This document shows, piece after piece, positions 1-1,489 of a stretch of DNA of 64,000 nucleotides; the first letter of the stretch is position 1; each line of letters starts with the position of its first letter. Source of the DNA: Zunongwangia sp. ESRF-bin46 (lineage in GTDB: Bacteria; Bacteroidota; Bacteroidia; Flavobacteriales; Flavobacteriaceae); the NCBI GenBank assembly GCA_002631855.1, contig NTLF01000014.1, positions 297,951-361,950 on the forward strand. The letters are read 5' to 3'. The notes beneath the pieces are model-generated. The model was not told the origin of the DNA, ran no database searches, and saw only the letters and a list, made by a program, of their open reading frames with translations. A program made the position numbers and the translations under genes.

Positions 1-65
1 AATTCAATAAAATGTATGCTGGTTTAGTTTAATGAAAGTTTTTTAATTATTGAATTCAATTTGTG

Positions 66-608
66 TTATTGATAATCAACATATCTAGGCGGAACAAATC
101 CGTTTAATCTCAAATAAACAAGCATTTGTCCTCTATGATGTGTTATATGGTCAGCAAGCAGTAATAAAATTTGTCTTTTCGTCCTTTTTAATCCAAAATA
201 ATCCAATTCGTCATCGAGTTCAGCTACATCAAATTCTGTAATTAGCTTTATTGTCTTATCAAAAGTTTCGTCAATTTTAGCAATCATCTCTTCTTTAGAT
301 TTATTGCTCGGCCTAAGTTCTGTGTCATTTTTCCAGTCTCTTGGTTCACGTCCACCCAATAAGGACTGACTATGCCAATCCATTGCCCAGCCTATATGCA
401 TTAAATTTTCTGCAAAGCTCTTTGATTCTGGTGTTGCTTTAAAATTATATTTATCACTTGGCATATTTTCTGCTACAAGAATTAAATACTTTTTTGAATT
501 TTCCAATCGCTCTAAGTAATCCTTAACAAAATCAGTTTGTTGAGCAAAAAGAGGTGAGCTAATTAAAGAAAATAAGGTTATGGATGTCAGAATAAAAAAG
601 CGTTTCAT
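66..608 (-). CDS. DinB/YfiT-like family protein with N-terminal signal peptide
   Basis: Signal peptide MKRFFILTSITLFSLISSPLFA; DinB-type motifs SFAENLMHI and HITHHRGQMLVYLRLNG. Confidence 0.85.
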   Translation of the reverse strand: MKRFFILTSITLFSLISSPLFAQQTDFVKDYLERLENSKKYLILVAENMPSDKYNFKATPESKSFAENLMHIGWAMDWHSQSLLGGREPRDWKNDTELRPSNKSKEEMIAKIDETFDKTIKLITEFDVAELDDELDYFGLKRTKRQILLLLADHITHHRGQMLVYLRLNGFVPPRYVDYQ

Positions 609-693
609 AATATACTTCGTTTAGGTTTTCAATGTACATAAAGTTTTGTTCAGCTTACGTAAAGCAACTATATAAAAAACAATTATCATTTAG

Positions 694-757
694 TAGCCTC
701 ACCAAGAATCACTTCGACAAGCTCAGCACAAGCTTCTATCCATTGAACTACGAGGCC
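694..757 (-). pseudogene. Disrupted tRNA (Arg-like); anticodon arm and 5' T arm replaced by a REP-like element
   Basis: Minus strand reads GGCCTCG TA GTTC AATGGATA GAA [GCTTGTGCTGAGCTTGTCGAAGT] GATT CTTGG TGAGGCT A: acceptor stem 1-7/66-72 pairs (two G-U), D arm with GG and A20, 3' T loop/stem and A73 are present, no anticodon arm. Confidence 0.75.
711..733. repeat. REP-like short palindromic element (CTTCGACnnGCTCAG family)
   Basis: ACTTCGACAAGCTCAGCACAAGC; core resembles the elements at 36357-36388 and 37947-38012. Confidence 0.65.
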
Positions 758-778
758 TTTTGTATATCCAAAATAACA

Positions 779-1474
779 CTACTTTTTTTTATCCCAATAA
801 ACATAGGCGCCAAAAGCAATTAAACAAACTAAAGAGCCCCACAACAGTCCATTTTTTAGGCTATCGGTATTTTGGCCTACAATGGCAATAAAAATAGTAA
901 GCGGCGTAATGCCCAACATCGTTGCACCAATAAAACGCCAGTACCCCATGTTTAATATTCCGCCAACGAAACTTATAGCATCATTAGACAAAAACGGATT
1001 AATACGAGTGACCACAACCGCCCAAAAACCGTAATCTTCAATAAAACCCTCAATTTTCTTTTCAGTTTTACTTCCTATAATTTTTTCAACTAAAATCTCA
1101 CCAAAATAACTACCAATAGCATATCCAACTGAAGACGCTGTGAATACTGAAAGTAAAATGATTAGACTTCCCCATATAGGACCATAGGCCAATACCGAAA
1201 CTACCATTAATGCTACAGAAGGGATTACAATTAAAAACATTTGTGCTACCATCGCCAAGATTAGCACCACTGGGCCTAACCAACCAAAGCCGGAAACCCA
1301 TTCTTCTATTCGCTTTTCATCATTACTAGTGAGAACCGTCCAAGCGTTATTAAAAAACTGTTCAACCGAAGGGATTGTGAAATAACAGATAACCAAAGTA
1401 GTTATTAATGCAATTGAAACATACAAAGGCAAGCGTCCTTTGCTTTTTGAAGAATCAATGTCGTTGTTACTCAT
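779..1474 (-). CDS. TVP38/TMEM64 (VTT/DedA-like) membrane protein
   Basis: Multi-TM; FLIVIPSVALMVVSVLAYGPIWG and RINPFLSNDAISFVGG motifs; ATG at 1474 preferred over the track TTG at 1486. Confidence 0.85.
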   Translation of the reverse strand: MSNNDIDSSKSKGRLPLYVSIALITTLVICYFTIPSVEQFFNNAWTVLTSNDEKRIEEWVSGFGWLGPVVLILAMVAQMFLIVIPSVALMVVSVLAYGPIWGSLIILLSVFTASSVGYAIGSYFGEILVEKIIGSKTEKKIEGFIEDYGFWAVVVTRINPFLSNDAISFVGGILNMGYWRFIGATMLGITPLTIFIAIVGQNTDSLKNGLLWGSLVCLIAFGAYVYWDKKK

Positions 1475-1489
1475 ATATCCTATCAAGTT

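Follow-up and report, generated by a model that had tools for sequence, protein, structure and literature searches.

A probable pseudogene of tRNA-Arg(CCT), apparently formed by deletion, in a Flavobacteriaceae genome

Background

[quoted passage not shown] The rttR sequence lies in one of these tyrT repeat units (PMC3318445). Certain members of the Flavobacteriaceae possess comparable arrays, likewise composed of tandem units that repeat a tRNA 3' end; they have no sequence relation to the tyrT units, which are their nearest described analogue, and the locus described here holds a single truncated unit fused to the 5' part of the tRNA. A second point of reference is E. coli argW, which encodes the same isoacceptor and into which prophage integrates (phage Kapi1, PMC8787464); argW is intact, whereas the gene described here is destroyed.

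Integration-site tRNA remnants of the attL/attR type resemble the present locus in having a direct repeat of the tRNA 3' end, variable genes, and partial copies elsewhere in the genus and family. Unlike such sites, the locus has neither an integrase nor a large island between the copies, and its tRNA-derived element appears to be a secondary deletion product, a fusion of a kind that neither integration nor excision makes. Lastly, REP/BIME and MITE-type repeats share with the middle segment of the element its shortness, its extragenic position and its recurrence amid GC-rich palindromic modules; unlike them, the segment forms no clear palindrome and shows no evidence of mobility into the site.

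The window analysed is a stretch of 64,000 nt (G000:C14:297951-361950) of the source genome G000, a 22-contig draft of 3.33 Mb. The window was compared with seven genomes of the same genus (G001-G007; Marixanthomonas, Flavobacteriaceae), and the locus was searched in 40 related genomes.

Results and discussion

A tRNA-Arg(CCT) remnant in three parts

The element occupies 64 nt of the minus strand (window 757..694) and consists of GGCCTCGTAGTTCAATGGATAGAA, GCTTGTGCTGAGCTTGTCGAAGT and GATTCTTGGTGAGGCTA in succession. Its first part (734..757, minus strand), which comprises the 5' strand of the acceptor stem, the 5' strand of the D stem, the D loop and part of the 3' strand of the D stem, is identical at 24/24 positions to positions 1-24 of the intact tRNA at the syntenic site of G001, G002 and G005 (100% over query 1-24, E 9e-6, against same-genus tRNA-Arg(CCT)). 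The middle 23 nt (711..733, minus strand) do not resemble a tRNA core; they belong to a small repeat family and align to TTTATGCTGAGCTTGTCGAAGT of G001 and G002, and their counterpart in relatives lies downstream of the intact tRNA, directly before a duplicate of the tRNA 3' end. The third part (694..710, minus strand) repeats the final 17 nt of the tRNA, from the T loop to the discriminator A, and matches GATTCTTGGCGAGGCTA at 16/17 positions. G001 and G002 each have the latter sequence at two places in the syntenic locus, and G005 has it at two places next to a further tRNA-Arg(CCT) copy on another contig; the syntenic 17-nt copies of G004 differ from it by 1-2 changes. A deletion junction at 733..734 (minus strand) marks the absence of at least 64 nt relative to G001 and G002, with AGAA flanking the break on both sides. 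The ends of the element can pair over 7 bp in the manner of an acceptor stem (G1.U72, five Watson-Crick pairs and G7.U66).

These matches bear out the preliminary description of the element as tRNA positions 1-24 and a 3' end with a pairing acceptor stem, separated by 23 nt. They also sustain its assignment to tRNA-Arg with a CCT anticodon: by sequence identity and by position alike, with an intact tRNA-Arg(CCT) at the syntenic site of relatives, the element is a remnant of that gene by descent.

The syntenic locus in relatives

An intact tRNA-Arg had been predicted at this locus in relatives, and ARAGORN found an intact 72-nt tRNA-Arg(CCT), GGCCTCGTAGTTCAATGGATAGAATAGAAGTTTCCTAAACTTTAGATCCAAGTTCGATTCTTGGCGAGGCTA, directly after the stop codon of the TVP38/VTT gene in four of the seven same-genus genomes (G001, G002, G004 and G005). 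In the same four genomes, a GCTGAGC..TTGTCGAAGT segment lies downstream of the intact gene, and the 17 nt that end the tRNA are repeated after it. The order after the tRNA in G001 and G002 is CGAGAAAAGAAGAGAAGTTTAT-GCTGAGCTTGTCGAAGT-GATTCTTGGCGAGGCTA, that is, the bases that had been called REP-like and then the second 3'-end copy. The spacer between tRNA and duplicate is 39 nt long in G001 and G002 and 90 nt long, with the same ending, in G004; in G005 the arrangement is decayed at the syntenic locus and clean next to the other tRNA-Arg(CCT) copy.

In G003 the corresponding position holds a decayed copy (86% identity) whose acceptor and anticodon stems are broken and for which ARAGORN makes no call, and the single-contig genome G006 contains no match to tRNA-Arg(CCT). 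The nearest relative, G007, in which both flanks are 94-96% identical to those of the source genome, has undergone a clean 653-nt deletion corresponding to window 118..770, with TTATTT microhomology, that removed the whole element and most of the adjacent DinB gene. The deletion junction of the element itself is found in the source genome only, being absent from the seven genus relatives and from metagenome contigs. These comparisons show that loss of tRNA-Arg(CCT) is recurrent in the genus, having occurred by point mutations, by a 64-nt deletion and by a 653-nt deletion.

The upstream gene (779..1486, minus strand) encodes a TVP38/VTT-domain membrane protein (Pfam PF09335 VTT_dom, E 1.4e-21); its stop codon is 21 nt before the fossil, it is conserved beside the tRNA in relatives, and the gene preceding it is of the SdiA-regulated type. 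The downstream gene (66..608, minus strand) encodes a DinB-superfamily protein (Pfam DinB_2 and DinB). Together with a 569-aa open reading frame, it makes up a ~2.7-kb segment (window 1-608 and G000:C14:295860-297950) that is also present in G007, at 96% identity and with a truncated DinB gene. The segment separates the fossil from the gene found immediately after the tRNA in G001, G002 and G006, and is therefore variable cargo on the 3' side of the tRNA.

Probable origin of the element by deletion

Pairwise local alignment places 41 of the 44 window bases after position 24 on the downstream duplicate region of G001. The flank after the 17-mer of the window, CTAAATGATAATTGT, matches the flank after the second copy in G004, not CGAGAAAAG after the first. 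The preliminary description had taken the retained 3' end for the tRNA's own final positions; the flank places it on the downstream duplicate. A MAFFT alignment put the 3' end of the fossil on the first 17-nt copy, a placement disfavoured by the pairwise alignment and the downstream flank and rejected because it forces the middle segment against the anticodon arm with almost no identity. What is missing relative to G001 is 64 nt, consisting of tRNA positions 25-72 plus CGAGAAAAGAAGAGAA; this is a minimum deletion length because the spacer varies among relatives (39 nt in G001 and G002, 90 nt in G004).

Alignment with the relatives shows an ancestral locus, still present in genomes of the genus, in which the TVP38 gene was followed by an intact tRNA-Arg(CCT), then by a short spacer with GCTGAGCTTGTCGAAGT at its end, and lastly by another 17-nt copy of the 3' end. 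The locus in the window differs from it by the absence of at least 64 nt, which extended from tRNA position 25 up to the edge of the spacer's repeat segment. The loss probably proceeded by microhomology or by slippage at the 4-nt AGAA repeat; the shared TCGA proposed earlier as the route has no role, and AGAA stands on both sides of the break. Such a deletion would have removed what was left of the D stem, together with the whole anticodon arm, variable loop and T arm and the original 3' end of the tRNA, and would have fused the 5' 24 nt to the downstream 3'-end duplicate. The acceptor-like helix would then survive by accident, because the downstream duplicate carries the 3' acceptor strand, and the resulting chimera would have no function.

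Accordingly, the element is very probably a pseudogene of tRNA-Arg(CCT), a recent functionless fossil made by deletion. The fossil had been one of two options offered in the preliminary description, and it is the one favoured by the intact tRNA of relatives and by the deletion arrangement; the other, a repurposed RNA or a processing site, gained no support from the sequence analysis. The undecayed state of the 5' 24 nt fits a recent event and would also fit residual constraint.

Structure and possible expression of the element

ARAGORN does not call the element in its default, -ps, -ps50 or -mt (armless mitochondrial) modes; run on the whole window, it reports only a tRNA-Asn (2492-2566). A scan of window 500-950 against Rfam at E<=10 gave no tRNA match (RF00005) and only chance snoRNA-like matches. 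The D arm, the anticodon arm with a 7-nt loop and the T arm with its T loop that characterize a functional tRNA were not found in the element. Its minimum free energy fold retains the acceptor helix alone, without a cloverleaf, and pairs AGCUU with AAGCU (5 bp) across the junction; the z-score is -1.3. The intact tRNA of relatives folds into a cloverleaf (z -2.1), and the trailing unit in relatives folds no better than shuffled sequences (z -0.3).

The identity elements of E. coli tRNA-Arg for ArgRS are C35 with U/G36, plus A20. The anticodon arm is deleted from the element and only the D-loop part remains; it is thus predicted to be unable to be charged by ArgRS or to decode, because the anticodon (with C35, the main ArgRS identity element) and the T arm are absent. 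Judged by its sequence, the element likewise has no T arm stacked on the acceptor helix, the shape used by RNase P and the CCA-adding enzyme.

The former tRNA promoter retains a -7 box, TATTTTGG (768..775, minus strand; read from the MAFFT alignment), with one mismatch to TAnnTTTG, the consensus of Bacteroidota. The box matches TAnnTTTG perfectly in G002, G003, G004 and G005; the mismatch is not decisive, because G001, in which the tRNA is intact, also has one. Scans of the locus for sigma-70 promoters and terminators yielded nothing relevant, and no terminator-like site nearby.

It is conceivable, though improbable, that the chimera is transcribed, with the former promoter of the tRNA or read-through of the TVP38 gene as the source, and serves as a small RNA or as a tRNA-like structure for processing or stabilizing the 3' end of the TVP38 mRNA. 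The surviving 7-bp acceptor-like helix, the -7 box only one position off consensus, and the location 21 nt after the TVP38 stop codon with no terminator-like site found between or just after would suit such a role. Against it, the junction is confined to one genome, the nearest relative has deleted the whole element, 23 of 200 shuffled sequences fold as well as the element does, and no T arm stacks on the acceptor helix, so that the minimal substrate shape for RNase P and the CCA-adding enzyme is missing. Very improbable, too, is a wider proposal that the chimera is not inert, in which it would be transcribed together with or after the TVP38 gene and cut at the remaining acceptor-like helix to yield a ~64-nt tRNA-derived RNA, or would act as a structure that processes or stabilizes a 3' end, and the units trailing tRNA-Arg(CCT) in several genera of Flavobacteriaceae would have a separate function, such as that of spare or decoy attachment sites.

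Repeat family of the middle segment

The core of the middle segment, the 20-mer TGTGCTGAGCTTGTCGAAGT, has one other exact copy in the source genome (C12:204700), and copies with 1-2 changes number four more in a 2.6-kb cluster at C12:202-205 kb and one on contig C10. Six copies are found in this genome at <=2 mismatches; at <=3 mismatches there are 10, against 7.6 expected by chance. The family has ~7 copies in 3.3 Mb, five of them within the one cluster, and the many, dispersed, extragenic copies characteristic of REP sequences were not found for the 20-mer in this genome. The label of REP-type repeat is accordingly better replaced by that of a small family that is not genome-wide. As a separate observation, the cluster (G000:C12:202100-204750; locus L039, 4100-6750) is a dense, GC-rich mosaic of the repeats CCCCTCAAGGGG, CCCCCCTTGAGGGGGG and ACGGGGGGTGTT and the CTTCGACAAGCTCAGCACAGCGCC module, with spacings of 99, 122-125 and 349 nt between repeats and short open reading frames interleaved.

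Membership of this family is what speaks for the mechanism put forward in the preliminary description, in which a REP-type repeat, by insertion or by recombination, took the place of the core of the tRNA gene, perhaps via the shared TCGA. That mechanism requires an insertion and an exact loss of 32 nt, and leaves unexplained the match of the flank to the sequence after the second copy, whereas a single deletion accounts for everything, the downstream flank included; moreover, relatives carry the segment and the 17-nt copy downstream of an intact tRNA. Replacement of the core can be given hardly any credence. Scarcely credible either is an assembly artefact concealing an intact tRNA plus scar, as the 22-contig draft state of the genome and the 17-nt direct repeat at the locus in relatives might suggest, given that collapse across the 17-nt repeats would produce an intact tRNA without scar rather than a break at a 4-nt AGAA, that the element lies ~298 kb inside a 782-kb contig, and that the sister genome G007 likewise lacks this tRNA.

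Arginine isoacceptors and dispensability

Genome-wide, ARAGORN identifies tRNA-Arg genes with the anticodons TCG, ACG and TCT in the source genome and none with CCT, although in a 22-contig draft a copy may lie in a gap, and G005 has two. The genome-wide check of arginine isoacceptors suggested earlier thus finds TCT present and CCT missing. AGG is used at 3.2 per 1000 codons and makes up 9% of arginine codons (1295 long open reading frames); with tRNA-Arg(CCU) lost from the source genome, the reading of AGG must fall to tRNA-Arg(UCU). The E. coli tRNA-Arg(UCU) reads both AGA and AGG, whereas tRNA-Arg(CCU) reads AGG only; argW knock-outs are viable, and the double deletion alone is lethal (PMC12123629). 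By this precedent, loss of tRNA-Arg(CCT) would be tolerated because the UCU tRNA reads AGG. Repeated loss within the genus suggests that the CCU tRNA is dispensable in this organism as well, in agreement with the preliminary description. The significance of the element is small beyond annotation; it documents, with its counterparts, the repeated independent decay of one dispensable tRNA within one genus.

Trailing 3'-end units and a possible integration hot spot

In other genera of Flavobacteriaceae, too, tRNA-Arg(CCT) is trailed by the repeat module and, after it, the final 17 nt of the local tRNA: two 87-nt units follow the gene in an Arenibacter metagenome-assembled genome, one in G307, at least three in G301, and four to five units of 96 nt in G122. 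Each 87-96-nt unit (1-5 in tandem) is composed of a terminator-like hairpin with a T-run, a conserved CTGAGC-N(2-4)-GTCGAAGT module and an exact copy of the 3' 17 nt of its own tRNA. Because the terminator-like hairpin precedes the 3'-end copy, the flavobacterial units may not be transcribed. Units were observed at loci L165 (G122:C1:1402179-1405199, minus strand), L169, L164, L162/L081, L205, L206, L209 and L210; the units of G122 and G301 also begin with an inverted repeat of the tRNA 3' end (…GGGGCTAC AAA GTAG…GGCAA).

In a sample of 25 genera of Flavobacteriaceae with this tRNA, one has a 17-nt copy and three more have longer partial 3' copies right behind the gene. The junction of module and 3' end occurs in 8 of 401 family genomes (a reversed control pattern occurs in 1) and in marine metagenome contigs, some of which have 5'-truncated tRNAs resembling att junctions; no such junction was found in viral contigs. 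Partial 3' copies and 5'-truncated copies of tRNA-Arg(CCT) are common in other Flavobacteriaceae and in metagenome contigs. A scan of genome contigs with the 17-nt pattern proved too short to be informative, nearly all of the 80 loci listed being chance matches in coding DNA, but it did bring out the Arenibacter case.

As at an att-type site, a direct 17-nt repeat is present in relatives of the source genome, with the copies only 39-90 nt apart; no integrase was found among the scanned neighbour genes, and viral contigs lack the junction. We infer that the downstream duplicate, which contributes the 3' end of the fossil, is a scar of site-specific recombination or of local (tandem) duplication at a tRNA that would be an integration hot spot. 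These copies point to tRNA-Arg(CCT) as a hot spot of recombination across the Flavobacteriaceae, and the trailing tandem units are the sole part of the system that might merit more study. If integrative elements do use these units, they would be expected to carry an attP reading ...CTGAGC-N-GTCGAAGT / GATTCTTG...

Other tRNA-derived sequences were observed in the course of the analysis. A second decayed fragment of tRNA-Arg(CCT), covering positions 21-63 at 88% identity, is located at G000:C2:101506-101547 (minus strand; L040 9507-9548), between a DUF3800-like open reading frame and pntA, with GTAGAACATTTGCTGAACA ~70 nt later. A homologue of the fragment (positions 20-72, 94%) is present in G001, and in G005 the arm sequence recurs behind the tRNA. 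The C2 fragment was considered as the other half of a split gene and rejected, G001 having the homologous fragment plus an intact tRNA; it resembles the arm of a different integrative element with this tRNA as its target.

A Marixanthomonas-like metagenome scaffold (L203, TARA_R100000306_G_scaffold5273_2) contains a tRNA-Arg(CCT) truncated at the 5' end (from ~position 23 on), the scar and the usual downstream gene, joined to a run of open reading frames. The sizes of these (135, 147, 432, 449 and 359 aa) mirror those beside the C2 fragment in the source genome, which suggests that a large inversion may have occurred between two tRNA-derived repeats.

ARAGORN also made several odd calls in the source genome, outside the window (C14:761780-761872, C14:768724-768811, C16:131471-131558 and C9:102423-102499), namely a tRNA-??? 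of 93 nt whose anticodon (ggtc) has four bases, a pair of tRNA-Phe(gaa) of 88 nt each beside a normal one of 74 nt, and a tRNA-Tyr(ata). Either false positives or tRNA-like elements could account for these calls.
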